The translations under genes and the position numbers were made by a program. Below, piece by piece: positions 19,721 to 38,105 of a DNA stretch of 64,000 nt (position 1 is its first letter; the number at the start of each line of letters is the position of its first letter). The notes beneath the pieces are model-generated. The model saw nothing but the letters and a program-made list of their open reading frames with translations, was not told where the DNA came from and did not search any database. The stretch is from a virus. The stretch spans positions 1 to 64,000 of IMG/VR virus record IMGVR_UViG_3300013102_000030. One strand, written 5' to 3'.

Positions 19721-19923
19721 AATTCGAATTCAGAGTCTTCCAGAACAACCAATCAGTACCAGTTCACACCGAAGAGTCGGATGTGGAGAACCCAGCACCG
19801 AAATGCCATGAGCTTTCCGTCAAGTTCCACCTTGGCCCTCCCACCTATTCGGTGGATTACGGCTGGCGGTACACTGACGGCTATGTATCTGCTTCACCCC
19901 TAGAACAAGAAAAGGACAAATGA
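19717..19923 (+). CDS. hypothetical protein (paralog of 19266..19502)
   Basis: FE..VFQ....VHTE...HLG...YTDG. Confidence 0.75.
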   Translation: MKFEFRVFQNNQSVPVHTEESDVENPAPKCHELSVKFHLGPPTYSVDYGWRYTDGYVSASPLEQEKDK

Positions 19924-20444
19924 CTTTCCAGATCATCAAGGGCGATCTGTTCGACCCCGCCCACAACTTCAACGCGCTCGCACAGGGTGTCAACACCAAG
20001 GGCATCATGGGCGCTGGCATTGCGGTGCCGTTCCGGGAGAAGTTCCCTCTCATGTACCGTGAGTACATCCAGTGGTGCGCCAAGTACGAGGCCGTTCTTC
20101 CGGGCCTCCTGCACGCCTTCTACGACGTTGACGGTGGAGTCCATCCCTCACGTCCTGCCGTCTACAACCTGTTCTCTCAGGTCCAGCCCGGAAAGGACGG
20201 CTCCTACGCCCTGCTGGAACGCGCCACCTTCCTCATGCTGAAGGAAGCAGAGGATTCTCTCTCAGTCTTTACGGCTTTTGATTCAACCCGTCCTGAAGAT
20301 CCTGACCTGATTGACGGCAAGTTCCGCGTTGGCCTGCCATGGATCGGCTGTGGCATTGCCGGTCTCCAGCGTCACAACGTTGAGCACATCTTCCGCCGAT
20401 ACCTCACCGACTCTGAGGTTGAGTTCACTCTCGTAGAGCAGTAA
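19920..20444 (+). CDS. macrodomain protein (ADP-ribose binding/hydrolase, DarG/TARG1-like group)
   Basis: IIKGDLF; GVN..G.MGAGIA..F..KFP; LP.IGCGIAGL. Confidence 0.88.
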   Translation: MTFQIIKGDLFDPAHNFNALAQGVNTKGIMGAGIAVPFREKFPLMYREYIQWCAKYEAVLPGLLHAFYDVDGGVHPSRPAVYNLFSQVQPGKDGSYALLERATFLMLKEAEDSLSVFTAFDSTRPEDPDLIDGKFRVGLPWIGCGIAGLQRHNVEHIFRRYLTDSEVEFTLVEQ

Positions 20445-20453
20445 GGAAACAGT

Positions 20454-21281
20454 ATGGAACTTTTCTTTGTCCTCTTTTTCCTTGTACTGACCGCAGTGCT
20501 GATCGTGGGCGGGAAGTTCCTCCAAAGCAACCCGCAGATCGTCCAGCGGACAAAGAAGATCCTCCATGCGAACCGCCAGCCGCCCTCTGATCCAGTAGCC
20601 GACCAGAGGGCGCTGGAGACCGCCTTCAAGAACCTCCGGAAGGCCAAGCAGGAGGAACACTACCTGCATCTGAACCAGTGGCAGCAGGTCTATCTCCAGA
20701 ACCTCAAACCGACCGACCCCGAGCGCGTGGCCCTTGAGGTCAAGCGCAACGGAATCAACGTTGAGGAAGCCAAGTTTGTCGTCTCTGCTCCCGCCGACAC
20801 AGAGGAGATCAGCTACTCCCACCGAGTGGTCAAGGGCCTTTCTGTCCTCAGGGGTGAACCCAACAAGCAGTCCCAAACGCTTGCCACCCTGAAGAACGGC
20901 ACCAAGATTCAGATCGATGGATACACCTACGGTGAAAAGATCGGCTACACTGATATCTGGTACCGTATTGACGACAAGAACGGCATCTACGCTACCGCGT
21001 ACATCTGGGCAGGGTCCACAACCCAGCCCGAGCCTAAGGGACTCCCGCGTGTCTTCCCCGAGAACACACCCAAGTCCCCTGCGGCAGTACGTGACCTTGA
21101 GCGCAAGATCGACCTGCTGAACGCTGAGGTTGAGAACAGCCTCCGAAGGACAGCAGGGAAGACCAGCCGTGAAGTCAGGGCTGAGGTCATGTTCGTACCA
21201 CTCAAATCCCCCAAAAGTACTCGATGGGACGCAACTCCCAAAGAGTACATCCCCTCCACTATCCAAAAGGTAATCAAATAA
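20454..21281 (+). CDS. membrane-anchored protein with SH3b-like domain
   Basis: N-terminal TM; LR.EP...S..LATLKNGTKI.I.G......WYRI. Confidence 0.7.
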   Translation: MELFFVLFFLVLTAVLIVGGKFLQSNPQIVQRTKKILHANRQPPSDPVADQRALETAFKNLRKAKQEEHYLHLNQWQQVYLQNLKPTDPERVALEVKRNGINVEEAKFVVSAPADTEEISYSHRVVKGLSVLRGEPNKQSQTLATLKNGTKIQIDGYTYGEKIGYTDIWYRIDDKNGIYATAYIWAGSTTQPEPKGLPRVFPENTPKSPAAVRDLERKIDLLNAEVENSLRRTAGKTSREVRAEVMFVPLKSPKSTRWDATPKEYIPSTIQKVIK

Positions 21282-21293
21282 CGAAAGAGAATC

Positions 21294-21887
21294 ATGAAAG
21301 AAAAACTTATCAAGGCTTACTGGACAGCTTGGCGCTGGCCGGAAGTTCATAGCGACTCCAAGGACGTGATCTGGATCAGCCGCGTCCTCGCTGTTGCCAT
21401 CCCGGTTTTTCTTGTGATTCTGACCTTCCTGATCGGTGTATCAGCCTTTGGTGTCGTCCTGTCCGCCATCATGGCCGGATTTGTCGGTGTCGGGCTGATT
21501 GTCCTCACCGTATCCGCCTTCTACGAGGAATACCCTACAGTGGAAGACTTTGAGGCACGTGAAGCAGCCATCAAGGACTTCTTCATCGGCTTTCCGTCCA
21601 TCACGGACGTTCCGATCATCGAAGATGACGAAGATGAGTGGATCGCGTACGGCCACATCGACAAAACCCTCTTCCTTGATGCCATTGCCCGAGTCATCTT
21701 CCGTGTTACGGAAGACGGAGCACTTGCTGACCGGTTTATCGGCAAGGAAGATCAGGTGGAGTACCTGTACGCCCGTTTCAACAGCCCACAGCAGACGCAC
21801 TGGAAAGACGGCATCACCTTCTGCCACGAGCACTCCACAGACTGCTTCCCCGTTACGAGAATTGAGATACATGAGCCAGACAACTAG
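21294..21887 (+). CDS. membrane protein (2 TM) + soluble domain shared with next gene
   Basis: two hydrophobic helices; GHID motif. Confidence 0.8.
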   Translation: MKEKLIKAYWTAWRWPEVHSDSKDVIWISRVLAVAIPVFLVILTFLIGVSAFGVVLSAIMAGFVGVGLIVLTVSAFYEEYPTVEDFEAREAAIKDFFIGFPSITDVPIIEDDEDEWIAYGHIDKTLFLDAIARVIFRVTEDGALADRFIGKEDQVEYLYARFNSPQQTHWKDGITFCHEHSTDCFPVTRIEIHEPDN

Positions 21888-22209
21888 ACCAATGCGCCCG
21901 ATCACTGAGCGGGACTTCCACGGCTACCCTGAAGAGGTCACAGCCCTTCCCATCTACGAAGAAGACGACGGACAGGTCTTTGGCTGGGGCCATATCGATC
22001 CTGCTGAGTTCGTACTTGCCATTCAGCAGATTGCCAAGTACCATGAACTGGACGACGACTTCTCCGATGTGGAAGGTACCGACATCTCCCACACATACGC
22101 CAAGCCTCACCCGTATCTCACGGATGATGACCTTCAGGGAGACATTGCGTTTGTCCTGTGCGCTGAAGAAGACGAGGGCGCGTTCCCGATCACCTACTTC
22201 CAGCCCTAG
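21871..22209 (+). CDS. hypothetical protein (soluble paralog of upstream C-terminal domain)
   Basis: 3' part of ORF 21499..22209; PI.E.D...GHID...FP.T. Confidence 0.75.
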   Translation: MSQTTRPMRPITERDFHGYPEEVTALPIYEEDDGQVFGWGHIDPAEFVLAIQQIAKYHELDDDFSDVEGTDISHTYAKPHPYLTDDDLQGDIAFVLCAEEDEGAFPITYFQP

Positions 22210-22215
22210 GAAGCC

Positions 22216-22479
22216 ATGGCAGAACGAATCCAACTCCCGATCCCCACCGGAGACCTTCTCCCGGCTCAGGAACGGCTAGAGAACGCTCTCAATGCCATCA
22301 AGAACCGCCTGCTGTACGAAAAAGGCGAGTGGGACCAGATGCTGAGGGAACTCGATATGGGCTTCTGGACCGAGGACTCTCCGGAGCTAGCCAAGCAGCG
22401 GAGCTTCATGCAGGGACTTGACATTGCATGGAGTATCGCTCAGACAGAAGCTGTACGACGAACCGACAGCCCGACCTAA
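22216..22479 (+). CDS. hypothetical protein
   Basis: AGGA SD. Confidence 0.75.
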   Translation: MAERIQLPIPTGDLLPAQERLENALNAIKNRLLYEKGEWDQMLRELDMGFWTEDSPELAKQRSFMQGLDIAWSIAQTEAVRRTDSPT

Positions 22480-22488
22480 GGATACACA

Positions 22489-22911
22489 ATCTCATTAGAA
22501 CTAGTACTGATTCTCTCCCTGCTGGCCCACATGGTGGGGGACTATCTGATTCAGAACCACTGGATGGCCTCTCAGAAGACCTCACAGTGGTTGCCAGCAG
22601 TTGCCCATGGTGTCACGTACGCCATCCCGTTCATATTCATTGTTCCGTCGTGGCCTGCATTGTTGATCATTGCGGGAACTCATATAGTTATCGACCGCTA
22701 CCGACTGGCGCGTCACGTGGTATGGTTCAAGAACCAGCTAGCGCCCAAGGACTTCCGGCCTCTCACTCCGGCACTGAAGACCACCGGATACGCTGAGAGC
22801 ACTCCCGTGTGGCTCTCCACATGGCTGATGATCATTGCGGACAACACGCTCCACCTGATCATCAACACGCTTGCCATCGTATTCCTTGGACACGTCGGGC
22901 TGATGTGGTGA
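22489..22911 (+). CDS. DUF3307-type membrane protein; probable ATC start
   Basis: H..GDY..Q..WMA..K, H...Y, H..IDR, DN..H motifs; conserved His lies upstream of ATG22531. Confidence 0.75.
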   Translation: MSLELVLILSLLAHMVGDYLIQNHWMASQKTSQWLPAVAHGVTYAIPFIFIVPSWPALLIIAGTHIVIDRYRLARHVVWFKNQLAPKDFRPLTPALKTTGYAESTPVWLSTWLMIIADNTLHLIINTLAIVFLGHVGLMW

Positions 22912-23051
22912 TTCATCCACAATGCGAGTGTTGTGCTAAATGTCGTGTACTTCAGGATGAAGAGTGGTGCCTGCAATGTGACTATTACAGTTGCGAGAGA
23001 GGTCCCGACTGCCGGGACGCAACATTTACGGAAGAAGTGTTCAGTGGCTGA
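22908..23051 (+). CDS. small Cys-rich protein
   Basis: GTGA overlap; 8 Cys in about 47 aa. Confidence 0.5.
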   Translation: MIHPQCECCAKCRVLQDEEWCLQCDYYSCERGPDCRDATFTEEVFSG

Positions 23052-23400: not shown

Positions 23401-23425
23401 CACTGAACAAGAAAAGGATTAGACT
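23397..23425 (+). promoter_or_regulatory. SigA-type promoter for NAD operon, near-leaderless
   Basis: TTGACA-17-TAGACT, ATG 9 nt downstream. Confidence 0.8.
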
Positions 23426-23434
23426 CAACACATA

Positions 23435-24343
23435 ATGATTACCTTCAAAGCTAAAGACACATCCGGCGAGAACATCAATTCCGCCCTCCACGAGTTCACC
23501 TTCCCCGCTGGGGAGAAGCACATCAAGCAGACAGAGGATCGGGAGATCCAAGATGTCGAAATCGCCATCTGGCAGCCGACTCCGGACTCCATCCACGATG
23601 ACCTGTTCACACTCGGTATGTGGATGAACTTCATCATCCAGACGGATGTTGAGGTTGCCAAATCCAACTCCTCATTCACTGGTACCCACACCGTTCTGCT
23701 CATGCCCTACGTTCCCGGTGCACGCGCTGACCGTGGAATCCCGTTCGGTCTGGGTACGTACGCAAAGTACATCAATGACCTGATGGTTGACCAGATCATC
23801 ATCTTTGATCCTCACTCCCAGCGTACTCCTGAAGTCCTTCACGGCTTTGATAACCTTACGGTTCTCTACCCTGAAGATCTGTTCGCACTGGGCCACATGG
23901 CTGCTGTCATCAATGGCTACACGGGCATCATTGCCCCTGACAAGGGCGCTGTCCTGCGTGCTGAAGGTGTAGCCAAGGCTGCAAACCTTCCGGTCTACAC
24001 TGCCACCAAGGAACGGGACGAAGCCACCGGTAAGCTCTCCAACTTCAAGATTGAAGGTCTGCCTACTGACGGCACCTTCCTTGTGGTCGATGACATCTGT
24101 GACGGAGGCGGAACCTTCCTTGGTCTCGCTGACGCAGCAGGTCTTGAGAAGAACCAGCTTGACTTGTACGTCTCGCACGGTGTATTCTCAAAGGACGCGC
24201 TGAAGAACCTCAAGGAGAAGTTCGGACACGTCTTCACCACCAACTCCTTTGCTCCCAAGCGGGAACTCAACGACGATGACGAATACCCGATCTACCGTCG
24301 CTTTGATGTGATCCGTCTGATGGAAAGCAAAATCAAGTACTGA
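23435..24343 (+). CDS. ribose-phosphate pyrophosphokinase-like (probable ADPR-PP synthetase, NARP1 Adps type)
   Basis: FP.GE; MPYVPGARADR; DPHS; APDKGA; VVDDICDGGGTF; VSHGVFS. Confidence 0.9.
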   Translation: MITFKAKDTSGENINSALHEFTFPAGEKHIKQTEDREIQDVEIAIWQPTPDSIHDDLFTLGMWMNFIIQTDVEVAKSNSSFTGTHTVLLMPYVPGARADRGIPFGLGTYAKYINDLMVDQIIIFDPHSQRTPEVLHGFDNLTVLYPEDLFALGHMAAVINGYTGIIAPDKGAVLRAEGVAKAANLPVYTATKERDEATGKLSNFKIEGLPTDGTFLVVDDICDGGGTFLGLADAAGLEKNQLDLYVSHGVFSKDALKNLKEKFGHVFTTNSFAPKRELNDDDEYPIYRRFDVIRLMESKIKY

Positions 24344-24507: not shown

Positions 24508-24523
24508 CTGAAAGGCTATACCA

Positions 24524-26032
24524 ATTACTGCTGATCTTGCTTTCCTCAACCCGCTGCTGGACACCGACTCCTACAAGCTCTCCCACTTCAAGATGTACCC
24601 TGAAGGTCTGGAAGAGGTAGAGTCCAACTTCACGTCCCGAAAGTCCCGTGTTGACGGTGTGGCTCACGTCCTCCAGTTCGGACTTCAGGCATGGCTCGCT
24701 GAGCGTACCCGAGCATGGGATATGTTCTTCTCATCCCCCAAGGATGAAGTCATTGCCGAGTACAAGGAGAACATCTCCACCTTCGTCAATCCCGGTTTCA
24801 CGCTGGAGCACGTGGAAGCTCTGCACGATCTGGGCTACCTCCCGCTCCAGTTCTCACAGGTTCCTGAAGGCACCCTTGTCCCCATCGGTGTCCCGTCCGT
24901 CCTGATCCGCTCCACCCACAAGAAGTTCGCATGGCTGGTCAACTACATCGAGTCCGACCTGTCCGCAGGAATCTGGCACCCGTCCACCGTCGCAACTCTC
25001 GCATGGCGGCTCCGTCGCGTCTTTGAGAAGGCCGCAAAGGAAACCGGTGAGAGCACTGAGGGCGTTGACTTCCAGCTCCACGACTTCTCCTACCGTGGAC
25101 ACGTCAACCGTGCAGCGGCCAAGGCAGCAGGCGCAGCCCATCTGATCTCCTTCAAGGGATCTGATGCTGTTCCGGCTGTGCCGTGGATCAAGCGCTACTA
25201 CCCCGGAGCACAGAACGGCCTGCTTGCAGCCTCCGTTCCCGCTACCGAGCACTCCGTGATGTGCGCCTACGGTCGGGCCAATGAGATTGACGCGTTCCAG
25301 CACCAGCTTGACACGTTCCCCACCGGCATCCTGTCCGTGGTCTCTGACACCTACAGCCTGAAAGATGTCATCACCAAGTTCCTGCCGGAACTGCGTGACC
25401 AGATCATGGGACGTGACGGCAAGCTCGTGATCCGTCCTGACTCCGGTGATCCGGCAGACATCATCTGCGGCACCAACCGCGAGTTCGGTACCAGCGGTGA
25501 CGACTTCTACGCAAAGGGCGCGATTGAAGCCCTGTGGGAGTTCGCTGGTGGTACGATCAACGAAGAGGGCTACAAGGTTCTGGACTCCCACGTCGGCCTG
25601 ATCTACGGTGACGGCATGTACAAGGAGCGCATTGAGGACATCAACGCACGTCTGAAGGCCAAGGGCTTTGCCTCCACCAACTGGGTTGCCGGTATCGGTT
25701 CCTTCTCCTACCAGATGATCACCCGAGACACCTTCGGTTCCGCTGTGAAGGCTACGTTCGTTGTCGTCAACGGTGAAGAGCGCAACATCCAGAAGGACCC
25801 GGAGACCGACGACGGCACCAAGAAGTCCGCTACGGGCCGACTGGCCGTGCTGTCCAAGGCTGACGGTACCCTGTACCTCGTGCAGGAAGCCACGGCTGAA
25901 CAGAGGGCCAACAGCCTGATTCAGCCGGTCTGGGAGAACGGCAAGTTCATCAAGCGCCAGTCCTTCAACGACATCCGCGAGAATGCAAAGCGCTGGACTG
26001 AGATCCTTGAGCGCAACGGCTCGCTTACGTAA
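24524..26032 (+). CDS. nicotinamide phosphoribosyltransferase-like (probable NARP1 Namat type); ATT start
   Basis: LLDTDSYKLSH upstream of ATG24593; HDFSYRG; PATEHSVM; SVVSDTY; IRPDSGDP; IYGDG. Confidence 0.9.
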   Translation: MTADLAFLNPLLDTDSYKLSHFKMYPEGLEEVESNFTSRKSRVDGVAHVLQFGLQAWLAERTRAWDMFFSSPKDEVIAEYKENISTFVNPGFTLEHVEALHDLGYLPLQFSQVPEGTLVPIGVPSVLIRSTHKKFAWLVNYIESDLSAGIWHPSTVATLAWRLRRVFEKAAKETGESTEGVDFQLHDFSYRGHVNRAAAKAAGAAHLISFKGSDAVPAVPWIKRYYPGAQNGLLAASVPATEHSVMCAYGRANEIDAFQHQLDTFPTGILSVVSDTYSLKDVITKFLPELRDQIMGRDGKLVIRPDSGDPADIICGTNREFGTSGDDFYAKGAIEALWEFAGGTINEEGYKVLDSHVGLIYGDGMYKERIEDINARLKAKGFASTNWVAGIGSFSYQMITRDTFGSAVKATFVVVNGEERNIQKDPETDDGTKKSATGRLAVLSKADGTLYLVQEATAEQRANSLIQPVWENGKFIKRQSFNDIRENAKRWTEILERNGSLT

Positions 26033-26243: not shown

Positions 26244-26268
26244 CAAAACTTCATAAAGGTGGTATGAT
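26240..26268 (+). promoter_or_regulatory. SigA-type promoter of HTH gene
   Basis: TTGACA-17-TATGAT, overlapped by ACAAAACTT. Confidence 0.8.
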
Positions 26269-26289
26269 AGGATAAACTTAGGAGTCATT

Positions 26290-26781
26290 ATGACCAAACA
26301 CAATCTCCCAGAGCTATCCAGAGAAACCATCGAACAGCTAGTGGCCCTCAGAGGGACCAACAAAAGCGAGTTCTACGCGCTGGTATACGCGCTACGGGCC
26401 GCAGGATGGACTCTGAGGGCCATTGCTGTCCCGCTGGACGTATCTCGTACCTGTGTCGATGGCTGGAAGCAGAAATACACGTCCGACACTCCTCTTCCTG
26501 AGGTAGAACCCCTTCCCGTGGTCGCTGTCAAAGACCGCACACACGACACCAAGAAGTTCACCCTCACTGACGAAGAGGCAGCGGAACTGAGAGAGCTTGC
26601 TACGGAAGCATCTCAGGTCCGCAGATTCACGGATGTCAACGCTCCATCCCGAAAGGCGGCAGCGGAACTGGAATCCCTCCTCCTCGCCTACAGCCAGCGC
26701 GGAGCTTCCTACCTTCAGCTAGCCAAGGCGTGCGGGGTATCCCGTACATCCATCACACAACGACTGGACAAGCACAGATAA
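26290..26781 (+). CDS. double helix-turn-helix DNA-binding protein
   Basis: GWTLRAIAVPLDVSRTCV and GASYLQLAKACGVSRTSITQRL. Confidence 0.85.
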   Translation: MTKHNLPELSRETIEQLVALRGTNKSEFYALVYALRAAGWTLRAIAVPLDVSRTCVDGWKQKYTSDTPLPEVEPLPVVAVKDRTHDTKKFTLTDEEAAELRELATEASQVRRFTDVNAPSRKAAAELESLLLAYSQRGASYLQLAKACGVSRTSITQRLDKHR

Positions 26782-27134: not shown

Positions 27135-27143
27135 AGGAACACT

Positions 27144-27359
27144 ATGACAGGAAAGATCCCCCGCTTTGGGGCAGAACTCTTTGGCGGACATGTCGGAACC
27201 GGCACTGCCGTTCAGACCGGCTGTGTCTACTGTCTGCATGCAGGTCTGAAGGCCCCCGCGCTGGATCATGTGACCTACATGTGGGCCGGAACCAGCTATT
27301 GCAGTGACCACCTTCAGGAACACATCTTCAAGACCGCAGGAGCAGCAAATGGCACGTAA
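27144..27359 (+). CDS. small Zn-finger-like protein
   Basis: CVYC...GTSYC..H. Confidence 0.7.
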   Translation: MTGKIPRFGAELFGGHVGTGTAVQTGCVYCLHAGLKAPALDHVTYMWAGTSYCSDHLQEHIFKTAGAANGT

Positions 27360-27651
27360 CCAAGCAGTCACCGGCATCAGCGATTCACTGGCTGTCTACC
27401 GGCTTACAAAGCTGGTCATGGAAGACAAGATCACGGAAGATCTGAGGGACTGGATCTATGACAAGTTCCCTCACGGTTCCAAGGTCCGATACCTCATCAA
27501 TTGCCAATGGTGCGTCTCCGTCTGGGCAGGACTGGCGGTCTTCGGTCTCCGTGCAGTCAACCCCAAGGCAGCAGATCTCCTCTCCGGAGCGCTTGCAGCG
27601 TCTGCCGTTACAGGAATCCTGTACGCAAAGGGAGTTGACCAGCCAAACTAG
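27349..27651 (+). CDS. DUF1360-type membrane protein
   Basis: A.YRLT.LV.ED.IT..LR; L..C.WC.SVW. Confidence 0.75.
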   Translation: MARNQAVTGISDSLAVYRLTKLVMEDKITEDLRDWIYDKFPHGSKVRYLINCQWCVSVWAGLAVFGLRAVNPKAADLLSGALAASAVTGILYAKGVDQPN

Positions 27652-27713: not shown

Positions 27714-29324
27714 ATGTCCATTTTTGATAAAAGAAACTCTTCTCGGGCTTCAGAAGATCTTATTGCGCCACAGCGCTACAATGCTCCCCGATCACTTACG
27801 GCTTCCGCCGCACGTATCGATCTGAAGAACAAGAAAGAGATCGACGCGATCAACAAGCGTCGTCAAACAGACAAGTGGCAGCAAGAGGCGTGGCAGTACT
27901 TTGACCTAATCGGTGAAATTAAGTACTCCGCGAACCTTGTTGCCAATGTCATGTCCAGAGTCAACCTCTACTCCGGATACGTGAACGATTCTTCCACTGT
28001 ACCATCAGACGTTGATGATGTCGAGAGCCTGCCGGAAGGTTTCGCACAGGATGCCAAAGACATCCTCTACCTGCTAGAATCAGGTAACGGCGGAACCTCC
28101 GGCTTGCTTCGTGGTGCAGCCCTGAACCTCTTCCTCGTGGGAGAGTGCTACCTTGTTCACGAACCAGCACGCTTCTCAAAGCACGAGCCTGCTAAGTACC
28201 AGATCCGTTCCATCTCTGAGATCGTCTCCACACAGGGACGTAATGCTCAGGTTGCCATCAAGCCACGCCGCGACTCAAAGCCAGCAGACATGCTTCCGCT
28301 GCCTTCCAACGGCTACATCTCCCGTATCTGGCGCAACCACCCTGAGTACTCTGAAGAGGCTGACTCCTCGCTCAAGGGTGTCCTTGACCTGTGTGATGAA
28401 CTGCTGCTTGTCTCCCGTACCGCGAGCGCTACAGCCAAGTCCCGCCTCAACGGTGGTCTTCTGTTCGTACCGGACGGTCTGTCCAACGTAACCCAGTCTG
28501 AGGGTGGCGAAGAGCTTGACGGCGAAATCGCTCCCATGACCGATGATGTCTCCGACTCCTTTGAAGAAGAGCTTATCGATGCCATGACAACTCCTATCGC
28601 TGATATCTCTTCTGCGTCTGCTGTTGTTCCTCTCGTGGTCCGTGGTCCTGAAGATCTTGGTGACAAGATCAAGCTGATCAAGTTTGAGCGTTCGTTCGAC
28701 CCGCAGCTTGCAGCACGTGCAGACCGCCTCATTGAGCGTATCCTTGCTGGTATCGACATCCCCAAGGATATCGCGGCAGGTATGTCCAATGTCAAGTACT
28801 CAAACGCTATCATCATCGAAGAGCAGCTTTACAAGGCCCACATCGAGCCGCTGATCCTCCTGATTGTGGACTGCCTCACCATCGGCTTCCTCCGTCCCGC
28901 TCTGCGTGCACAGGGATACGATGAGAAGTTTGTGAACCGTGCAGTGGTATGGTATGATCCTTCTGCCATCACTGCGAAGCCTTCCAAGGCTGAATCCGCT
29001 GTCACCCTGTACGGCCTCAAGGCTATCTCTCAGGAAGCTCTGCGTCAGGCACACGGATTCACTGAGGGCGACAAGCCTTCCGATCTTGAGCGCGTACAAC
29101 GTATCGCTGAAGACCGTGGCAACCTAACGGATGCAATGTCCGAAACCCTGCTAAACACCATGATCCCTGAAGACCTGAAGAATCAGGCAAGGGAAGATGC
29201 ACTGGCAGCTTCTGATCCTACCAGCGCCAACGCCCTGCAAAACGCCCTAGGTGGTGACCCAGCGGCAACCGGTGCTCCGGCAGACGGATCTGCTCCGGCA
29301 GAACCAACACCAAGTAATGAGTAA
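27714..29324 (+). CDS. portal protein
   Basis: WQ.EAW..FD.IGE; L.LVGECYL; RIW..HP....ADS; SRL.GG.LFVP; position before head genes. Confidence 0.85.
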   Translation: MSIFDKRNSSRASEDLIAPQRYNAPRSLTASAARIDLKNKKEIDAINKRRQTDKWQQEAWQYFDLIGEIKYSANLVANVMSRVNLYSGYVNDSSTVPSDVDDVESLPEGFAQDAKDILYLLESGNGGTSGLLRGAALNLFLVGECYLVHEPARFSKHEPAKYQIRSISEIVSTQGRNAQVAIKPRRDSKPADMLPLPSNGYISRIWRNHPEYSEEADSSLKGVLDLCDELLLVSRTASATAKSRLNGGLLFVPDGLSNVTQSEGGEELDGEIAPMTDDVSDSFEEELIDAMTTPIADISSASAVVPLVVRGPEDLGDKIKLIKFERSFDPQLAARADRLIERILAGIDIPKDIAAGMSNVKYSNAIIIEEQLYKAHIEPLILLIVDCLTIGFLRPALRAQGYDEKFVNRAVVWYDPSAITAKPSKAESAVTLYGLKAISQEALRQAHGFTEGDKPSDLERVQRIAEDRGNLTDAMSETLLNTMIPEDLKNQAREDALAASDPTSANALQNALGGDPAATGAPADGSAPAEPTPSNE

Positions 29325-29354: not shown

Positions 29355-32300
29355 ATGGCATGGAATATCAGCACGGCAAAACGCCGAGCGCTCGTCAAGC
29401 TTCAGCTACGAGATAAGAACGGTCGATGGATCGAAATGGGCGGTGGAGTCAAGTGGTACTCCTCCCGCCTAAAGAAAGTCGTATCTGGTACCGTTGTAGG
29501 TACACAGGGTGAGAACGCCCTTGTCCGACTCCCTAAGGAGAACCCAACACACGAACCAGCACTTGTCTCGGTGCCAGCACGCAGCATTGCTGTAGTTGAT
29601 GCCAAGACGCGTATTTCCATTCCGGGTAAGAACGCCCCTGCGGACGCTACCCCTGAGTTCGAAAAGCCTGAAGCAGTTGGCAAGCTGTCCAAGCCTGCCA
29701 ACGGATTTGTCAAGCCCAACGACCGTCCCGAGGATTGGAAGATCTCTCAGACGGACGATGGCCGTACCTACATCTCCCGTCCTGACGGTGCAGATCTGTA
29801 CTTCCCTGCCCGTAGCCTTGACATCGGTGATGAGATCATTGCTCCGGAAGGCGCTGAAGCATCCAAGCCGTTCTCCATCGGTAAGTCGTGGGGCCGCAAG
29901 AAGGCTGAAGCGGTCAGCACCACTGGCCCGAAGATGGGTACCGTCATCGACATCAACGGTGACCGTTACGCTGTCGTGCAGCTTGCAGACGGTGTTGTCG
30001 TTGACGACCCCAAGCGTCCCGGAGAGAAGACCAACAAGGTTACCGTTGGTCTGTCCAACTCTGTCATCAAGGCAACCGATGGTCTGAAGCAGGCTCTTGG
30101 TGGTGTCTTTGACGACGAAGGCTTCAACGAAAACGACGGCGGCGACGATCAGGAGGTTGACTCATCCGAGGAGGCCAACTCTGATCACGCTGGACGTGAA
30201 GTCCCTGAAGAGGATACCAACCCTGAGGACGATCCTGCTGCTGACGTAGAGGTCGATATCGCTGAGGCTACCAAGGCTGCTGAGCCGGGAACCGACAACG
30301 AAGAAGACGCTCCGATTCGTGAAGAGGAAGATCCTGAAGCCAAGGCTGCTGCTGAGGCCGATCTTGCACGCCGTGTTGCCGAGCATGAAGCAAAGCGCAA
30401 GGAACTGGGAGACCAGTACGACGAAAACGGTCTGACAGCAGACGAAGCCAAGATGGTTTCTGCCTATGACCGCCTTGCTGCCGGTGCCTCCGACCCTGAC
30501 CGTGCCGCAAACTACTTTGACAAGGCCGAAGCTCTCCGTGAAACGGGCAAGAAGCGTCTCGGGGAGTCCAACGACAAGTCCGAGAAGCCTGCTGACAAGC
30601 CCAAGGAGGCCCCTCAGACGGCTCCGGAGCCTGAACAGGAGCGCCAGTCCGACTCTAACGATTTGGAGGCCCCTAAGGAGAAGTCAGAGGCTGAGAAGCG
30701 TTATGACAAGATCACCGATGAGATTCGTTCCATCAAGTTCCCCGGAGAAGATCAGGAACCTGATCTGAATGATCCGCGTCTGAAGGCAGCAGAATCTGCT
30801 GATGACAACGCTGTGGACTCTGAGCGTGAAGGTATCAAGCCCAACACCGATGAGTGGTATGATATGTGGACTTCCACCTATCACTCTGCTCTTGAGGATA
30901 ACAAGGCTGAACAGGACGCGAAGTCTCGCCAGCAGGAACAGGATCAGGCTGTAGAGGAGGACGCGTACGCTGCGGCCTATCACAAGCCTGCCCTCCTGTC
31001 CATCACCACACGCGGAAACACCCGTGGAGAGATGGAGTACTTTGATGAGGTAGCTCGTGAGTCTGAGATCGATCAGGGTTACCACATGGAAGGTAACAAG
31101 TTCATTGTCACCGACCTTGACAAGGCTCAGAAGGCTATTGACAACATCATCGATGTCTGGAATGATAAGCAGGAGTCTGCCCAGAAGGGCGGATACTCTG
31201 CGGAAACCCCTGCAAAGGTCCGTTCGGTCCTTGCTGGCCTTGAAAAGCTGGATGCACAGGTTCGTGAAGCCAAGCGCAACAAGGAAAAGCACGCCTCCCG
31301 CTTTGACGGAAACTACGACATCACGGCTGACCGCCGTCTTGGTAAAGTCCGTCCGGGTGCTGAAGACTCTGACTACGCTGTAGATCGTACCTCCGATGAG
31401 CTTGTCAAGGCAATGCCCATCGGTGGAACCCTTACAGTACATGATCCAGACAACTTCTACTCAGGAATTCCTGTCGTCAAGATCGATGACAACACTTGGG
31501 CACGCCAAAAGGGTGTTGCAAGCCGCGAGTGGGACTTCTTTGACGACTTTGACATGTCCGATGATCTCCTCACAGGTGTCAAGCTTCCGGACAACCCGAA
31601 GAATGACTTCACTGAGAAGGATCTCAACGATGCACGCCGCGCCAAGGAACGCAAGGACCGTGACGACAAGGCGTTCAACGACAACTGGAACGCACATCAG
31701 GAGAAGCTGAAGGCTGAAAGGGATGCAGAGCAAGCTCCTGCCAAGGAAGAGCCAGCAAAGAAGGAACAGGCTCCTCTCACAGAGGGAGACCAGTTCGAAC
31801 TGCCGCTTCCGGGTGTCCAGAAGCAGGGCAAGCGCGAGGACAAGTCTGCTGCCCACAAGAAGACTCTTGACGGTCTGGAAGAGGGTGACCGTGTATCTTA
31901 CACGAACGCCCACGATGAGACTTCCACCTACCAGAAGCACGCTGATGGTACATGGGATCTGCTGGACCCTGAGGATGAGTGGGAGGATCAGTCTCCTCTT
32001 GAAGAGGCTCTGACCTCTGACGAAGTTGCTGCACGTACAAAGCGTGGAGACCTTGAGGTTGCTACTGTAGCAGACCGTGAGGAAGCTGACAGGGAAGAGA
32101 ACTACAAGCGCAGGCTCCGTGGCGACGACTACATGAAGTCCAACCCTGATCCTGTTCGTCGTAAGAACAATGGCGACGAAGGCAAGTCCCAGACTCAGCA
32201 GCAGGCGCAGGATGCCAACTCCGCTGACCAGCCATGGAGTGCTGATGAGATTCAGGGCACTATGCGTGACTGGTTTGACTTTGCTCAGGCTGTCAAGAAT

Positions 32301-35300
32301 GGCGACAACCGCGCCATTGAAACGATGGCTAACAACAAGCGTACCGGTGACGAAGAAACTGATATCATCGTCAACGACAAGGGCCAGCCGTTCGATCTCA
32401 CCCTGACTTACAACGATGACGGAGATCCCGTTGTTCGCTTGAGCAATTTCGATGACTCCAAGGACATCTACGGAGACTTTGAGATTGACAACTCTGTCAT
32501 GCCCAAGCAGCTTGCTACACTCATCCACGAGTCGATCAACGCTGATGATCCCCATGCAGCAGTTGCCGAGCGCAACGGAAGCAACGATCCTGTTGATGAC
32601 CCTTCAGTTGGTCAGAGCTATGAGGTCAGCAGTCACATTGGTGAAGGTAAGAACTACCTTGCCAAGGCTATTGAAGATCACGGTGACTCTGGCATTGTTA
32701 TCAACGGCACCACAGCGGATGTCACTGACCTTGACAAGGCACAGGACTTCCTGCGTGACGCTGTTCTTGACATTCAGGGGAAGATCAGCGATCCTTCCGC
32801 CCGTAAGAACTCCAAGATCGAACTGAACAAGGCTCAGCGCAACCTCAACAAGATACTTGCTGATGTCAACGCCAAGCAGTTCCAGCGCGACGGAGTAACC
32901 CGTCCGCCAAAGTGGATGAGGGACAAGCAGGACTCAACTCCGGCCAAGTCTGAGGATGCCCCTGCTCCTGAAGCGGAGGCTCCCAAGGCTCCGGAAGCTG
33001 CCAAGACCAACGTACCACTGGCTGATCTTGAGAAGCAGGCCAAGGCTGACGGAGACACTGTTCTCTATCACGGTGGTCTGCCTGACGGTACGACTCTCGA
33101 TGACATTGATCTGAACCGCAATGGAGAGCAGCAGAACAAGCGTGGACGCTCATTCGGTGGATTCTATCTCACCGATGAGTCTTCCAAGAGTTGGTCCGAC
33201 GACTACGCCATGAAGCGTAACGGTGTCATGCACGGTTTTGTCATCGACAAGAACGCCCGTATTGACGACCGTGGAAAAGCACAGATTGACCGCCTCTCCG
33301 CAGAAGACCGCGCTGAAGCTGCCAAGACTGCCGATGTCATCAAGGGTAAGGACCTTCTGGGACGCACCCAGTATGTCCTGCTCAACAAGGATGTCATCAA
33401 GGGTGTTGGTGAGACCAACATGAAGGACGACAAGTCCTCTGAGGACTCTGCTCCTGAGGCTAATGCTCCGGAAGCTCCTTCAGCACCTGAAGCTGATGTT
33501 ACGCCTGAGGAGTCCGCTCCTGAGGCTGACGCTCCTGCTCCAGTTGACATTGTCGATCACCTGAACCAGAATGCTGTACTGGGAGATGACGCTGAGCGTC
33601 GTGCTGCTGGCCTGTATCTCGGTGGTGCTCGCTACAACTCTGTCCTACGTGACGCTGCTGAGAACGGTAAAGAGGTTCACCCTCAATTCCAAGATCAGAT
33701 CGATACCCTCACGGGATTCATCGAGAAGCAGCCGGAGTTCGGTCAGGAGACCAAGCTCTACCGTGGAATGAGCCAGAAGTTCCTTCCGGATGCAGAGAAC
33801 CGTGTTGGCGACGTTATCACTGAGCCTGCGTTCCTGTCAACCTCTCTCAAGAGGGATCAGGCTGAACTGTTCTCCGGTGTCGGTGGTGGTGTCCTCATGG
33901 AGATCACTGCACGTCCACAGGACAAGGGCCTTTCGGTCAACATTGCTCAGATGCATGATCAGTCTGACATTCCGGAAGAATACCGTGCTCCTAACGATGT
34001 AACCGCCCGTGAGGCTGAAATCCTCATGAAGCCGGGAACATCCATGCGTATCACGGGTGTTGACGAAGTCAACGGAACTAAGGTTGTCAGGGCTGAGATC
34101 GTAGACGCACCTTCCGACAAGGTAGATGCTGAGATCATCCCTGAAGAAGCTGAGCTTCCTGAGGCTGAAGTCGATACTCCTGCTGTTGATGCTCCTGAAG
34201 ACTCCATCAACTCCCGTGGCCTCACCGATGCTGAGGAAGAAGAGTGGAATCAGGCTGAGATCGATGCTGACGTTGAAGCCCGTGCAGGAGATCCTGACGG
34301 TGTCCAGATGTACAAGGATAAGGCTGATGCCATCCTTCAGCGTGGACAGGACCGTCTCAACGGTGTAGACTCCACTGAGGACTCTTCCGCTCCGGAAGAA
34401 CCAGCAGTTTACACTGAGGGTGGACCCGGACGCGTTCCTTCTCTCAAGGAGACCATCAAGGCGATCCGTGAATCCGGTGTCGAATCCGTTCACATTCCGC
34501 TCAGTGATGCTCCGAAGAAGGACTGGACTCCGGATGAGCTTGAGGCTAAGTTCGACAGGGACGAGAAGAACGGTCTGGGGAACCTCCAGTTCGACGCTCT
34601 TCCTGATGAGTACAAGCGCTACAAGGACTCATCTGCTCCGGCAGATCCGATCAACCTTCCTGAAGAGGCAGCACCAGAAGCATCCGCTCCTGAGACTGCT
34701 CCTGAAGGACCGGCTCCAACTCCGGAACAGCAGGCCAAGCTTGACGAGTACGACCGTCAAATGGACGCTGCTGTAGAGGCTGACGATGACGCAGCGTACG
34801 ACAAGGCATCTGATGCTAAGTACGATCTCATTGACGCAATCCGTAATGGTTCGGCATCCAACGAAAACTCTGATAGTGTTTCAGACATGGAAACCGAATC
34901 TGAACCTTGGGTAAACCCGCTGGATGCACTGGGCATCGAACGACGCACACCTGAAGCGATTGAGGGAGAGAAGTATCCTCCGACTCAGCAGCAGCAGGAC
35001 GTGATTGATGCTGTTCTGGCAGGTCTTGACACGAAGGTTCAGGCTATGGCCGGTACCGGTAAGACTTCCACGCTTGTTGCTCTGTCCCGCCGCCTCACAA
35101 AGGAAGGCAAGAGCGCGATCTACATTGCGTTCAACAAGACAGTTCAGGAAGAAGCTGAAGAGCGCATGAAGGGCCTGAAGGTGGAAGCCAAGACCGGTCA
35201 CGGTACGGCTCACACGTGGGCACGTACCAACATGCCTCACCTGACGACCCGTCTTGCTGGCAAAGATCCGATGTACCCGATCAAGTTCGACAAGAAGACC

Positions 35301-38105
35301 AAGCAGGCAACTGACTGGGCTGACAAGAAGCCGGTTTCCTCTTCACGAGAGATCGCTAACATTCTCGGTGTTGAGAACAACCAGATTCACGAGGACGGTA
35401 CTGGTATTCCGCTCTCCAAGTCCAGTGTTGTTTTGGCTGTCAAGAAGACTGTCGGTTCCTTCCAGCTTAGTGATAAGGATGAGATCCTTCCGGAGCACGT
35501 TCCGGACTCATTTGAAATCGATGAGGCAGACAAGCCGAAGATTGTTGAGTTCGCAAACGCGTACTGGGATGACCTTTCCCGCGAGGATGGTGTGTTCCGC
35601 ATGGAGCACGACACCTACCGTAAGCACTGGGCGCTTTCACGTCCTGACCTCACGGATGGTACCGGTGGCAACAAGGCTGGCGCATCCGTGCTCTACATTG
35701 ACGAGGCTCAGGATACCCCTCCTGTCCTTGCCAAGGTAGTTGCAGACCAGAAGATGCAGAAGGTCATTGTCGGTGACCAGAATCAGGCCATCTACGCGTT
35801 CGCTGAGAACATCGACTACCTCTCTGAGGCAGACGGTGACGTTGAGCTTCCGCTTGACAAGTCATGGCGATTCGGTCCTCAGGTTGCTGACATTGGTAAC
35901 CGCTTCCTCCAGATGCTGGAATCTGACAGCCGTGTTGTCGGTGGTGGCCCTGAGTCCAGCATCGTCTACGGCATGGAGAACGCTGACGCTGTTCTTGTCC
36001 GCACCAACGCTGGTATGATTCAGGTCATCCTTGAAGAGACTGCTCGTGGCCGCAAGGTTGCTGCTCCTCCGGGAACTCGTGCAGATCTGATCCGCATGGC
36101 TGACACGGTCGAGAACCTGCGTGATGGCTGGGCCGGAGAGAATCCTCACGATGATCTCCTTGGGTTCAAGGACTGGAACGAAGTCATGGCAGCGAACGAA
36201 AACGGAGACCGTAGTGTTTCCAAGATCGTGAGCATGTTCGATGAGGGAAGTCCAACCAAGCGTGGAATGATCAAGGACTACCCTGCGTTCCTTGCTCAGC
36301 AGATGTCCAATGTCCGAAAGGCCATTGACAGCCTTGTCATGGAAGTTCCGGAATACCAGAACATCAAGCTTGTCAAGGAAGGTAACCGTACCTACCTTGA
36401 GGGTGCAGACCACCTGACCGGTAACAAGAAGCAGTTCGCGTCATACGACTTCAGCGCAGCCGTTGGTAAGATGAAGTACCCATACGCGGCCAAGCCGAGC
36501 ATGAACTTCATGGAGAAGAAGAAAGCCTACCACGAGGCAGGCGGACTCGGAACCGAAGGCTGGCGATTTGACTCTAGGTCAAAGCGCTACTACACTGATA
36601 GCCCAGAAGTAGCTGCTGGCATCGAGAAGTACTCGGGACAGGGAGACGTTATCGTTTCCACTGCCCACAAGTCCAAGGGTCTTGAATGGGACCGCGTCCG
36701 AATCAGTGATGACTTCCGTGCTCCTTACGAGGACAAGAACGGAGCCATGGTTTGGCCGGAGGATGACGAGTACAAGCTTGCCTACGTAGCCGTTACGCGT
36801 GCTGCCAAGGAACTTGATCCGGGTATTCTGGACTACGTTTTCGCTCACACACAGGAAAACGGTGGAGATCCCAAGAAGAAGCGTTCGATGGAAGATTCCA
36901 CTCCTGCTCCTGAGCAGGTTGAGGAAGAGAACCTTCCGAACAACGTTCCTGAAGAGGTTGCTGCTGAGGAAACAGACGTTCCTGAGGTTGAGGCTCCTGC
37001 CGAGATCCAAGAGAACCCTGAAGCCGATGTAGCTATTCCGGAAACGGAGCCGATGGGCCTCCCAGCCACAGACTACACGGAAGAGGAGTTTGCAAAGCTC
37101 CCTGTTGGAACTCGTATTCCAAGGGGACGCGGAGGCGAGCACCGCAAGGTTGGACCGAACGAATGGGAAAGCTACAACGAAGACGGTACCAAGCTCTCCG
37201 GAGGAACAAATACCGACTGGGTTATTCAGGCCAACGAAGAACTTCAGAAGCCTGCTCCAGTTGAGATTGATGCTCCAGAGATTCCGGAACAGGACGAACC
37301 TGTCATCACTCCGGATCTGGTTGACGCTCCTGAGCCTGTCTCAGAGCCTGATCCTGTACCTGTAGCTCCGGCTCCTGCTCCAACGCCTCCACCGGCTCCT
37401 GAGTTTGACGACGAAGGTCTGACTCCTCAGGAACGCCGCAGGGCTGATGAGCTTGAGCGCTGGATCGCTGAGGTCTACAAGGGCAACGCCCAAGGCAACG
37501 TGACGGCCATGGAGAACGAATTGTTCGACATGCTGGAGCGTGGCGAGAAGCGTATGAATCCGGCTCCTGAGCCTCCTACAGCGGCTCCACCGGCTAGGGA
37601 GACCACGACAACGCCTAAGGGACGCGCACCACGAGGTACGTACACCGATCAGCCTCTGATGGACTCCAGCGGTAAGCAGATCCAGATGGGTGACATGATT
37701 GGACACCCAAGGCTGGGACCGGTAGCAGTGACTGGTTTTGTTCCGCACTCCGGACGTAATACCTTCATTGATCCGGTAACAGGCAAGGAAGCGTCAGTCA
37801 AGGCGGCTAACGTCAAGATCGTCAATGACGTTCCGGACGAAGATATCACCGATATTGTTGGACAGCCCGGAGAGCGCTTCCAAGACCCGGCAACGGGTAA
37901 GAAAGCGTTCTACAACGGAGATGGACAGCCTATCGTGACCGGCCAGCGTGTCGTTGATCCTCGTACAGGACGTACAGGTGTTGTTGTCAGCGTCTATCCG
38001 GGCGCAGACGGCCTAGCCTCTGTCCCGGTTCAATGGGACGACGCTCCTAAGCCTGCCAAGCCAACCCGTGTCAAGGGTATCCTCTTGAAGCTGGCTGGTG
38101 TATAA
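29355..38105 (+). CDS. giant polyvalent head-associated protein: ART-like domain, VIP2-like ADP-ribosyltransferase, UvrD/Rep-like SF1 helicase
   Basis: LYHG..GFYLT; LYRG-FLSTS-REAE; AGTGKT, DEAQD, GDQNQAIY, SWRFG, STAHKSKGLEW, YVAVTRA. Confidence 0.85.
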   Translation: MAWNISTAKRRALVKLQLRDKNGRWIEMGGGVKWYSSRLKKVVSGTVVGTQGENALVRLPKENPTHEPALVSVPARSIAVVDAKTRISIPGKNAPADATPEFEKPEAVGKLSKPANGFVKPNDRPEDWKISQTDDGRTYISRPDGADLYFPARSLDIGDEIIAPEGAEASKPFSIGKSWGRKKAEAVSTTGPKMGTVIDINGDRYAVVQLADGVVVDDPKRPGEKTNKVTVGLSNSVIKATDGLKQALGGVFDDEGFNENDGGDDQEVDSSEEANSDHAGREVPEEDTNPEDDPAADVEVDIAEATKAAEPGTDNEEDAPIREEEDPEAKAAAEADLARRVAEHEAKRKELGDQYDENGLTADEAKMVSAYDRLAAGASDPDRAANYFDKAEALRETGKKRLGESNDKSEKPADKPKEAPQTAPEPEQERQSDSNDLEAPKEKSEAEKRYDKITDEIRSIKFPGEDQEPDLNDPRLKAAESADDNAVDSEREGIKPNTDEWYDMWTSTYHSALEDNKAEQDAKSRQQEQDQAVEEDAYAAAYHKPALLSITTRGNTRGEMEYFDEVARESEIDQGYHMEGNKFIVTDLDKAQKAIDNIIDVWNDKQESAQKGGYSAETPAKVRSVLAGLEKLDAQVREAKRNKEKHASRFDGNYDITADRRLGKVRPGAEDSDYAVDRTSDELVKAMPIGGTLTVHDPDNFYSGIPVVKIDDNTWARQKGVASREWDFFDDFDMSDDLLTGVKLPDNPKNDFTEKDLNDARRAKERKDRDDKAFNDNWNAHQEKLKAERDAEQAPAKEEPAKKEQAPLTEGDQFELPLPGVQKQGKREDKSAAHKKTLDGLEEGDRVSYTNAHDETSTYQKHADGTWDLLDPEDEWEDQSPLEEALTSDEVAARTKRGDLEVATVADREEADREENYKRRLRGDDYMKSNPDPVRRKNNGDEGKSQTQQQAQDANSADQPWSADEIQGTMRDWFDFAQAVKNGDNRAIETMANNKRTGDEETDIIVNDKGQPFDLTLTYNDDGDPVVRLSNFDDSKDIYGDFEIDNSVMPKQLATLIHESINADDPHAAVAERNGSNDPVDDPSVGQSYEVSSHIGEGKNYLAKAIEDHGDSGIVINGTTADVTDLDKAQDFLRDAVLDIQGKISDPSARKNSKIELNKAQRNLNKILADVNAKQFQRDGVTRPPKWMRDKQDSTPAKSEDAPAPEAEAPKAPEAAKTNVPLADLEKQAKADGDTVLYHGGLPDGTTLDDIDLNRNGEQQNKRGRSFGGFYLTDESSKSWSDDYAMKRNGVMHGFVIDKNARIDDRGKAQIDRLSAEDRAEAAKTADVIKGKDLLGRTQYVLLNKDVIKGVGETNMKDDKSSEDSAPEANAPEAPSAPEADVTPEESAPEADAPAPVDIVDHLNQNAVLGDDAERRAAGLYLGGARYNSVLRDAAENGKEVHPQFQDQIDTLTGFIEKQPEFGQETKLYRGMSQKFLPDAENRVGDVITEPAFLSTSLKRDQAELFSGVGGGVLMEITARPQDKGLSVNIAQMHDQSDIPEEYRAPNDVTAREAEILMKPGTSMRITGVDEVNGTKVVRAEIVDAPSDKVDAEIIPEEAELPEAEVDTPAVDAPEDSINSRGLTDAEEEEWNQAEIDADVEARAGDPDGVQMYKDKADAILQRGQDRLNGVDSTEDSSAPEEPAVYTEGGPGRVPSLKETIKAIRESGVESVHIPLSDAPKKDWTPDELEAKFDRDEKNGLGNLQFDALPDEYKRYKDSSAPADPINLPEEAAPEASAPETAPEGPAPTPEQQAKLDEYDRQMDAAVEADDDAAYDKASDAKYDLIDAIRNGSASNENSDSVSDMETESEPWVNPLDALGIERRTPEAIEGEKYPPTQQQQDVIDAVLAGLDTKVQAMAGTGKTSTLVALSRRLTKEGKSAIYIAFNKTVQEEAEERMKGLKVEAKTGHGTAHTWARTNMPHLTTRLAGKDPMYPIKFDKKTKQATDWADKKPVSSSREIANILGVENNQIHEDGTGIPLSKSSVVLAVKKTVGSFQLSDKDEILPEHVPDSFEIDEADKPKIVEFANAYWDDLSREDGVFRMEHDTYRKHWALSRPDLTDGTGGNKAGASVLYIDEAQDTPPVLAKVVADQKMQKVIVGDQNQAIYAFAENIDYLSEADGDVELPLDKSWRFGPQVADIGNRFLQMLESDSRVVGGGPESSIVYGMENADAVLVRTNAGMIQVILEETARGRKVAAPPGTRADLIRMADTVENLRDGWAGENPHDDLLGFKDWNEVMAANENGDRSVSKIVSMFDEGSPTKRGMIKDYPAFLAQQMSNVRKAIDSLVMEVPEYQNIKLVKEGNRTYLEGADHLTGNKKQFASYDFSAAVGKMKYPYAAKPSMNFMEKKKAYHEAGGLGTEGWRFDSRSKRYYTDSPEVAAGIEKYSGQGDVIVSTAHKSKGLEWDRVRISDDFRAPYEDKNGAMVWPEDDEYKLAYVAVTRAAKELDPGILDYVFAHTQENGGDPKKKRSMEDSTPAPEQVEEENLPNNVPEEVAAEETDVPEVEAPAEIQENPEADVAIPETEPMGLPATDYTEEEFAKLPVGTRIPRGRGGEHRKVGPNEWESYNEDGTKLSGGTNTDWVIQANEELQKPAPVEIDAPEIPEQDEPVITPDLVDAPEPVSEPDPVPVAPAPAPTPPPAPEFDDEGLTPQERRRADELERWIAEVYKGNAQGNVTAMENELFDMLERGEKRMNPAPEPPTAAPPARETTTTPKGRAPRGTYTDQPLMDSSGKQIQMGDMIGHPRLGPVAVTGFVPHSGRNTFIDPVTGKEASVKAANVKIVNDVPDEDITDIVGQPGERFQDPATGKKAFYNGDGQPIVTGQRVVDPRTGRTGVVVSVYPGADGLASVPVQWDDAPKPAKPTRVKGILLKLAGV

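Follow-up and report, generated by a model that had tools for sequence, protein, structure and literature searches.

NARP1-type, macrodomain and ADP-ribosyltransferase modules in a large phage related to Arthrobacter phages Atuin and Racecar

NARP1, a phage pathway that was demonstrated experimentally in 2024, rebuilds NAD+ with two enzymes, Adps and Namat, and the tested pair of phage Bas63 functioned without host PncC/NadR. Two further enzymes that feed NARP1 were demonstrated in 2026: Adpp, a macrodomain phosphatase which turns ADP-ribose-1''-phosphate (ADPR-1''-P) into ADP-ribose in the combination called NARP1-AP, and which 15% of NARP1 operons have at a distance of no more than two genes (bioRxiv 10.64898/2026.01.28.702374), and RyDEP, which makes ADP-ribose from cyclic ADP-ribose signals. 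The release of ADP-ribose for NARP1 by a phage enzyme is already an established idea. Here we compare these systems with a window of viral DNA, i.e., bases 1–64000 of IMG/VR record IMGVR_UViG_3300013102_000030 (174,136 bp, rated complete by CheckV), in which a macrodomain gene, a pair of genes resembling phosphoribosyl pyrophosphate (PRPP) synthetase and NAMPT, and the gene of a giant head-module protein with two ADP-ribosyltransferase (ART) domains lie on the + strand, as does every gene treated from the first of these to the last (Table 1). The record is a large soil phage related to Arthrobacter phages Atuin and Racecar.

A survey of viral NAD+/ADP-ribose systems (Iyer et al. 2022) counted 56% of jumbo phages with a Macro domain and 33% with NadV, and found that myoviruses are enriched in ARTs, often as parts of polyvalent proteins or as fusions to head proteins. 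The authors argue that phage Macro domains chiefly target soluble ADP-ribose derivatives. At such base rates, it is not unusual for one large phage to have three modules of this kind. Polyvalent proteins, among them P1 DarB and other carriers of ART-PolyVal domains, were described earlier together with the precedent of Alt (Iyer et al. 2017; PMC5512222).

The initial annotation of this DNA had placed a macrodomain, a PRS-like/NAMPT-like pair and ART domains in a head-module protein within 18 kb, and had joined them into one self-refuelled programme that writes, erases and recycles ADP-ribose. Each of these parts was found, whereas the single programme was not supported. Our favoured reading, which we hold with moderate confidence on the basis of sequence comparison, is that the window encodes three NAD+/ADP-ribose modules which are separately inherited and would work in parallel against the host, rather than as one obligate cycle. 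The evidence is computational throughout, and the departures from the known systems that are described with each module weigh against the reading.

Table 1. Features of the window, with coordinates in bases of the window
Feature	Coordinates	Strand	Observations
Stand-alone macrodomain protein, 174 aa, Poa1p/TARG1/DarG (ALC1-like) class	19920..20444	+	Pfam Macro; PHROG 335; AF2/Foldseek
SH3_3-containing protein and 197-aa protein (two intervening genes)	20454..21887	+	Endolysin annotation in Atuin; membrane protein annotation in Racecar
DUF3307 protein	22531..22911	+	Directly upstream of Adps; position conserved among relatives
Adps-like PRPP-synthetase homologue, 302 aa (putative first NARP1 enzyme)	23435..24343	+	Pribosyltran 2.7e-7; PHROG 619 'ribose-phosphate pyrophosphokinase' 5e-61
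Namat-like NAMPT homologue (putative second NARP1 enzyme)	24524..26032 (first ATG 24593)	+	NAPRTase 6e-36; PHROG 448 1e-168
Helix-turn-helix protein	26290..26781	+	Between Namat and portal gene; syntenic in all relatives
Portal protein	27714..29324	+	
Polyvalent head-module protein, 2916 aa	29355..38105	+	Two ART domains and UvrD-type helicase
ART domain 1, ART-PolyVal-like, H-Y-E (diphtheria toxin/PARP) clade	33048..33416 (aa ~1232–1354)	+	His1239, Tyr1271, Gln1339
ART domain 2, Alt/VIP2/Vis-like, R-S-ExE	33588..34082 (aa 1412–1576)	+	Arg1470, Ser1495-Thr-Ser1497, Glu1553-Ala-Glu1555
UvrD/FBH1-like SF1 helicase domain	34977..36824 (aa ~1875–2490)	+	

The NARP1-type pair

The initial annotation had already read the pair as NARP1, i.e., as enzymes which use ADP-ribose, and comparison with solved and tested proteins makes this reading highly probable and favours it over a PRPP-using type. 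In a search of the PDB, the NAMPT-like protein finds its best solved match in 9W5X/9W5W (418–431 bits), compared with about 217 bits for true Nampts. The paper that deposited these structures identifies them as the Namat of SPbetaL1 and defines a selectivity-clamp helix with the motif GSXФXФXФTRD, which is found only in Namats. The corresponding helix of the window protein, GSFSYQMITRD, agrees in length and spacing and carries Phe at position 3. However, position 7 is Met instead of an aromatic residue, which counts against the assignment. The protein probably starts at ATT 24524 rather than at the first ATG, because the conserved N-terminal NPLLDTDSYK motif, encoded at 24548–24577 in a reading frame that is open from 24512, precedes that ATG. 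The ATT sits 8 nt past a GAAAGG ribosome-binding site, and with the extension at the N-terminus the score against the solved Namat is 431 bits instead of 418.

The partner enzyme is assigned as an Adps from its motifs and its homology to Bas63, as the copy of the PDB that was searched holds no solved Adps structure. A structural study of Adps (PMC13586617) described a catalytic Lys185, the run Asp212-Asp213-Ile214-Cys215-Asp216, the residues Ser220-Phe221 and a remodelled PP loop from Cys215 to Ser220. The window protein has counterparts of all of these, i.e., the Lys (Lys192), DDICD and Ser/Thr-Phe, within the loop DDICDGGGTF. It is 31% identical (E 8e-25) to the product of Bas63 gene 79, which is the tested Adps, and the DDICDGG loop is the same in both proteins, whereas it scores just 43 bits against any solved cellular Prs. 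No CTP_transf_like match, which would indicate an NMN adenylyltransferase (NMNAT), was found anywhere in the 174-kb genome, and therefore a NARP2-type route, i.e., a Nampt with a phage NMNAT, is not encoded.

We infer the function of both enzymes from close homologues that have been tested. Once NAD+ has been split by a host NADase defence, Adps would pyrophosphorylate the resulting ADP-ribose using ATP, and Namat would join this product with nicotinamide to rebuild NAD+. The alternative is ordinary salvage, in which the pair would make PRPP and then nicotinamide mononucleotide (NMN), leaving a host NMN adenylyltransferase to complete NAD+. The Pfam families and the GenBank annotations of the relatives agree with such a role, and Namat is reported to retain some NAM-PRPP activity in vitro (PMC12774641). 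We nevertheless regard ordinary salvage as very unlikely, given the score to the solved Namat, roughly twice that to any Nampt, the Namat-type clamp motif, the Adps-type PP loop that the window protein has in common with Bas63, and the fact that the Bas63 pair, when tested, did not need host PncC/NadR.

The NARP1-type pair of the window resembles the NARP1 systems of Bas63, SPbetaL1 and DyoEdafos in that a PRPS-like gene lies next to a NAMPT-like gene in the same orientation, and in its clamp helix of Namat type, its DDICD PP loop and the lack of an NMNAT. We note two differences. First, the window enzymes are only 31–32% identical to those of Bas63 and bear the Met in the clamp. Second, the pair lies directly upstream of a head module in a 174-kb actinophage. 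The small neighbouring open reading frames (ORFs) include no NARP1 partner of the RyR/RyDEP type, the only families among them being DUF3307 and DUF1360.

Two side observations concern the surroundings of this pair in other phages. In several relatives, a metallophosphoesterase gene lies one to three genes downstream of Namat (L001:15723-16535 in Atuin, with homologues in the stretches numbered L004, L007, L010, L013 and L017); the window lacks it, and none was detected in the stretch of Racecar. Its product could be a further accessory enzyme of NARP1 that acts on an ADP-ribose derivative. A distant jumbo phage (L031, IMGVR_UViG_3300021514_000002, 363 kb) has a Nampt gene followed by a small nucleotidyltransferase gene, a NARP2-like pair, with a macrodomain gene of the Gln type discussed below 6 kb away.

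The macrodomain and its relation to NARP1

The macrodomain protein scores 22.6 bits against Pfam Macro, barely above the cut-off of 22 bits, and matches PHROG 335, named 'phosphatase', at 8e-31; it has more than 200 homologues. Its AlphaFold2 (AF2) model has a mean confidence (pLDDT) of 95, and the best solved matches of this model in Foldseek are yeast Poa1p (E 6e-13), followed by TARG1 and DarG. A profile of 31 homologues matches TARG1 at 2e-15, DarG at 1e-14 and Poa1p at 2.5e-8. From sequence and model, the protein is thus predicted to belong to a class that contains known ADP-ribose-releasing enzymes.

The active site points in more than one direction. The catalytic residues of TARG1 and DarG are not retained: Gln87, which is invariant in the 31 homologues, occupies the position of TARG1 Lys84 and DarG Lys80, and Ala147 stands in place of TARG1 Asp125. 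Loop 2 reads CGIAGL and is close to the SGIAGV of Poa1p, with GIAG common to both. In the Streptomyces macrodomain SCO6735, which blocks DarT and frees both thymidine in DNA and protein of ADP-ribose, a Gln at this position is essential, and a conserved Asn holds it in place (PMC9411070). Asn25 and Gln87 of the window protein, both invariant in the 31 homologues, mirror SCO6735 Asn27 and Gln85, so that a Gln and Asn signature of the SCO6735 type appears to be present; the equivalence comes by way of the TARG1 alignment and the published SCO6735 residues (PMC9411070). However, SCO6735 itself is matched poorly (E 0.009 by profile, rank 26 by fold). The window protein therefore has the same fold class as SCO6735, DarG and TARG1 and, with SCO6735 in particular, the Gln at the catalytic-Lys position and the conserved Asn, but it shows low sequence similarity to SCO6735 and has no DarT partner. 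Sequence alone would fit either a small-molecule phosphatase, as in Poa1p and Adpp, or a macromolecular de-ADP-ribosylase.

The macrodomain probably either supplies ADP-ribose to NARP1, in the manner of NARP1-AP, or counters host ADP-ribosylation. As a Gln-type ADP-ribose-releasing hydrolase, it would turn an ADP-ribose derivative made by a host defence into free ADP-ribose that NARP1 can use. The candidate derivative is ADPR-1''-P from RES-type NADases; alternatively, it may be ADP-ribose on nucleic acid or on Glu/Asp, placed there by DarT-like or other ADP-ribosylating defences. The macrodomain and the NARP1-type pair would then constitute a dispersed version of NARP1-AP. As in the NARP1-AP of Vibrio phage Gary (Adps, Adpp and Namat), a macrodomain of the Poa1p/TARG1/DarG class lies near NARP1 on the same strand.

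The distribution of relatives lends this connection some support. Of the 25 IMG/VR records that contain a relative of the macrodomain, 15 have a NAPRTase-family gene, among them all six that are at least 90% complete. Pseudomonas phage PAK_P1 carries a Gln-type relative on the same strand as its NARP1 genes, in the order Adps, hypothetical protein, Namat, hypothetical protein, macrodomain. Distant contigs have Ser-type, more Poa1p-like macrodomains inside NARP1 operons, in the order Adps-Namat-macrodomain (L030) or Adps-macrodomain-Namat (L032). In the Arthrobacter-phage lineage the order from macrodomain to Adps is conserved, which is weak evidence for coupling because the genomes are broadly collinear.

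A number of observations speak against a connection to NARP1. From the end of the macrodomain gene (20444) to the start of Adps (23435) there are 3 kb with about five to six ORFs, including lysis-type genes, which is further than the two genes that the published definition of NARP1-AP allows. The residue at position 87 is Gln where Poa1p has Ser, and such a site fits SCO6735, a de-ADP-ribosylase of DNA and protein, rather than Poa1p. Against tight coupling, Gln-type relatives in the Felix O1 group and in a further record (G003) lie tens of kilobases from NARP1, and several contigs with a relative of the macrodomain show no NARP1 within reach. At least 134 Salmonella-phage records have a macrodomain relative but no detected Adps (256 versus 122), a soft bound obtained from host-name counts in phage records.

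Several of the same facts would be expected if the macrodomain were an independent counter-defence which strips host-placed ADP-ribose, e.g., that added by DarT, from phage DNA, RNA or proteins and has no tie to NARP1. The mirrored Gln and Asn are those of an actinobacterial DarT antagonist, the host of the phage's relatives is itself an actinobacterium, TARG1 and DarG are nearest by sequence profile, and many relatives are distant from NARP1 or on contigs lacking it. On the other hand, SCO6735 is a weak direct match, its DNA-contact lysines cannot be aligned in the window protein, a NAPRTase-family gene accompanies the macrodomain relative in all six near-complete records, and the PAK_P1 relative adjoins NARP1. 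We judge a wholly independent role to be rather unlikely. More doubtful still is a version in which the Gln-type macrodomain would be the coupling enzyme itself, taking ADP-ribose off macromolecules that carry the marks of host DarT-like defences, or of the phage's H-Y-Q ART, and handing it to NARP1. If this version were true, large actinophages would have a single salvage route made up of de-ADP-ribosylation and NAD+ resynthesis, i.e., a NARP1-AP fed from macromolecules.

The giant protein, its ART domains and the proposed circuit

The initial annotation had spoken of ART domains in a head-module protein, and two were located in the giant ORF, which lies between the portal and protease genes in the order portal, giant ORF, 106-aa ORF, 833-aa ORF, head maturation protease (41036–42565) and major head protein. 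Acidic Pro/Glu/Ala linkers join the domains of the protein. Its N-terminus, C-terminus and helicase are conserved among relatives, and its middle, which holds the ART cargo, is mosaic.

ART domain 1 of the window has no Pfam match of its own, including none to PF18760; ten of 41 short relatives match Pfam ART-PolyVal. It is the most widely shared piece of the giant protein: many giant proteins that differ elsewhere have it at 50–80% identity, and it is found as short stand-alone proteins too. The profile of its family gives a weak match to diphtheria-type toxins, in which their YHG and GFY motifs are aligned, and its AF2 model (pLDDT 92) matches the catalytic domains of exotoxin A, cholix toxin, PARP2 and tankyrase with a Foldseek probability of 1.0. 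His1239 and Tyr1271 are invariant in the relatives. The third catalytic position is Gln1339 in the window and Gln in all close giant homologues; among 41 relatives it is Gln in 16 and Glu in 25. The activity of this domain is uncertain because Gln1339 stands at the catalytic-acid position, and the domain may be weak or inactive, which is a further point against our favoured reading. Outside the lineage, it sits in proteins annotated as 'DarB-like antirestriction', 'PLxRFG protein' or 'virion structural protein'.

ART domain 2, by comparison of its motifs, looks clearly intact and resembles arginine-specific toxins. It matches ADPrib_exo_Tox at E 1.3e-8, or at 3.7e-11 when the segment is searched alone, and its motifs are strictly kept in homologues bearing the domain and align to the arginine-specific Vis toxin. 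This R-S-ExE domain would ADP-ribosylate host proteins on arginine, the H-Y-Q domain may modify other targets, and the UvrD helicase would act on DNA.

The giant protein is probably packed in the head and ejected with the DNA, by analogy with T4 Alt and P1 DarB. Like the polyvalent proteins and T4 Alt, it is a giant multi-domain protein encoded beside a portal gene, with ARTs and a helicase and with mosaic domain content. The combination differs from that of the polyvalent proteins in that an H-Y-Q ART-PolyVal-like domain is joined by an Alt/VIP2-type R-S-ExE ART and by a helicase of UvrD type, in place of an SNF2 helicase and a methylase. The proposed packaging follows from the position of the gene in the portal-protease interval, and Pfam scans detected no MuF domain in the protein, which counts against it. 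Scans of its segments at E up to 1 returned nothing besides the ExoTox ART and the helicase, a PDB search with the whole protein returned an FBH1-like helicase and nothing else, and a search of the ESM Atlas with the N-terminus gave no usable match.

The two ARTs are exchangeable accessory cargo of the giant protein. In a set of 50,697 phage records, Atuin alone was found to have the R-S-ExE domain, and it shares the ART-PolyVal-like domain with 13 records of enterobacterial and Aeromonas phages that are unrelated. Racecar has the macrodomain, Adps, Namat, portal and a giant 'helicase' of 2709 aa in the same order, and a search of its whole genome found neither ART family. Four of the 25 IMG/VR records with a macrodomain relative have an ART-PolyVal-like domain and four have an ExoTox domain (one with two copies), always inside a giant ORF and in every combination. 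The macrodomain and NARP1 are thus independent of the ARTs, since Racecar does without both ARTs and ART content varies among relatives. The three modules are not inherited together: in the six records that are at least 90% complete, the NAPRTase-family gene accompanies the macrodomain throughout, whereas the ART-PolyVal-like domain is present in two and the ExoTox ART in one. Independent occurrence, which the initial annotation had named as a refutation of its circuit, is thus seen for the writer. Atuin-like phages with ARTs and Racecar-like phages without them, on the same host, amount to a natural experiment which could show whether ADP-ribosylation by the phage, its removal and NAD+ rebuilding are linked.

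In a closed circuit, the ARTs would write ADP-ribose marks, the macrodomain would erase them, and NARP1 would rebuild NAD+ from the released ADP-ribose and nicotinamide, making the programme reversible and self-refuelled. Every part lies within 18 kb on a single strand, the macrodomain class includes enzymes which remove ADP-ribose from Glu/Asp and DNA, among them SCO6735 with the same Gln, and the H-Y-E clade, to which ART domain 1 is assigned, makes marks that a macrodomain could in principle reverse. However, the circuit is disfavoured because the writer is independently inherited, the intact ART is of the arginine type and there is no ARH-type eraser. Racecar, Mimi and Talia1610 have the macrodomain and NARP1 without any ART, and the ART domains vary freely between relatives. 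The ART that looks clearly active is of the R-S-ExE type and is nearest to the Arg-specific Vis toxin, and a search of the phage's own genome found no ARH/DraG homologue, i.e., no Arg-ADP-ribose hydrolase. Macrodomains are not known to cleave Arg-ADP-ribose. In addition, a few injected enzyme molecules would be unlikely to drain NAD+ to the point of refuelling. The closed circuit is, in our estimate, highly improbable, and the ARTs, the macrodomain and NARP1 are better described as parallel modules.

Two further roles were considered and found unsupported, i.e., an Arg-ADP-ribose eraser encoded by the phage, given the negative ARH search, and RNA repair by KptA together with the macrodomain, given the negative search for KptA/Tpt1. 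Searches of the same genome for Nudix and NADAR were negative as well.

Within the giant gene, the linkers flanking the ART-PolyVal-like domain are direct DNA repeats (32945–32992 and 33431–33478, 71% identical over 48 nt), with a third, weaker copy at 30218; these repeats could serve as recombination points for the swapping of domain cassettes. Two stretches of the protein, aa ~575–625 (31080–31230) and aa ~1100–1150 (~32650–32800), have in common a motif that ends in VTDLDKAQ, and neither has a family match, which suggests an internal repeat of a domain without a family.

Relatives, public names and neighbouring genes

The portal and NAMPT-like genes of the window are about 78–80% identical in DNA to those of Racecar, Mimi, Talia1610 and Atuin, which are phages of Arthrobacter globiformis of about 194 kb. 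A literature search found no published work on the Racecar/Atuin-type phage group. The gene order of the lineage is kept as macrodomain, SH3 protein, 197-aa protein and other ORFs, Adps, Namat, helix-turn-helix protein, portal and giant protein, and it persists even where the macrodomain has diverged to 37–47% identity.

The names of the macrodomain, Namat, Adps and giant-protein homologues in GenBank are misleading. The macrodomain homologues are called 'ADP-ribosyltransferase' (Atuin gene 54, in stretch L001; Racecar gene 64, in L009; Mimi gene 63), and in these relatives Namat is called 'nicotinate ribosyltransferase', Adps 'phosphoribosyl transferase' and the giant protein just 'DNA helicase'. 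The present comparison adds NARP1, together with a probable accessory macrodomain, to a lineage of large Arthrobacter phages in which public records misname both, and it shows the ART domains to be swappable cargo of a giant protein encoded next to the portal.

The two genes at 20454–21887, which encode the SH3_3-containing and 197-aa proteins, are outside ADP-ribose metabolism. A DUF1360 gene at 27304–27651 lies directly upstream of the portal gene, a position that is conserved among the relatives.

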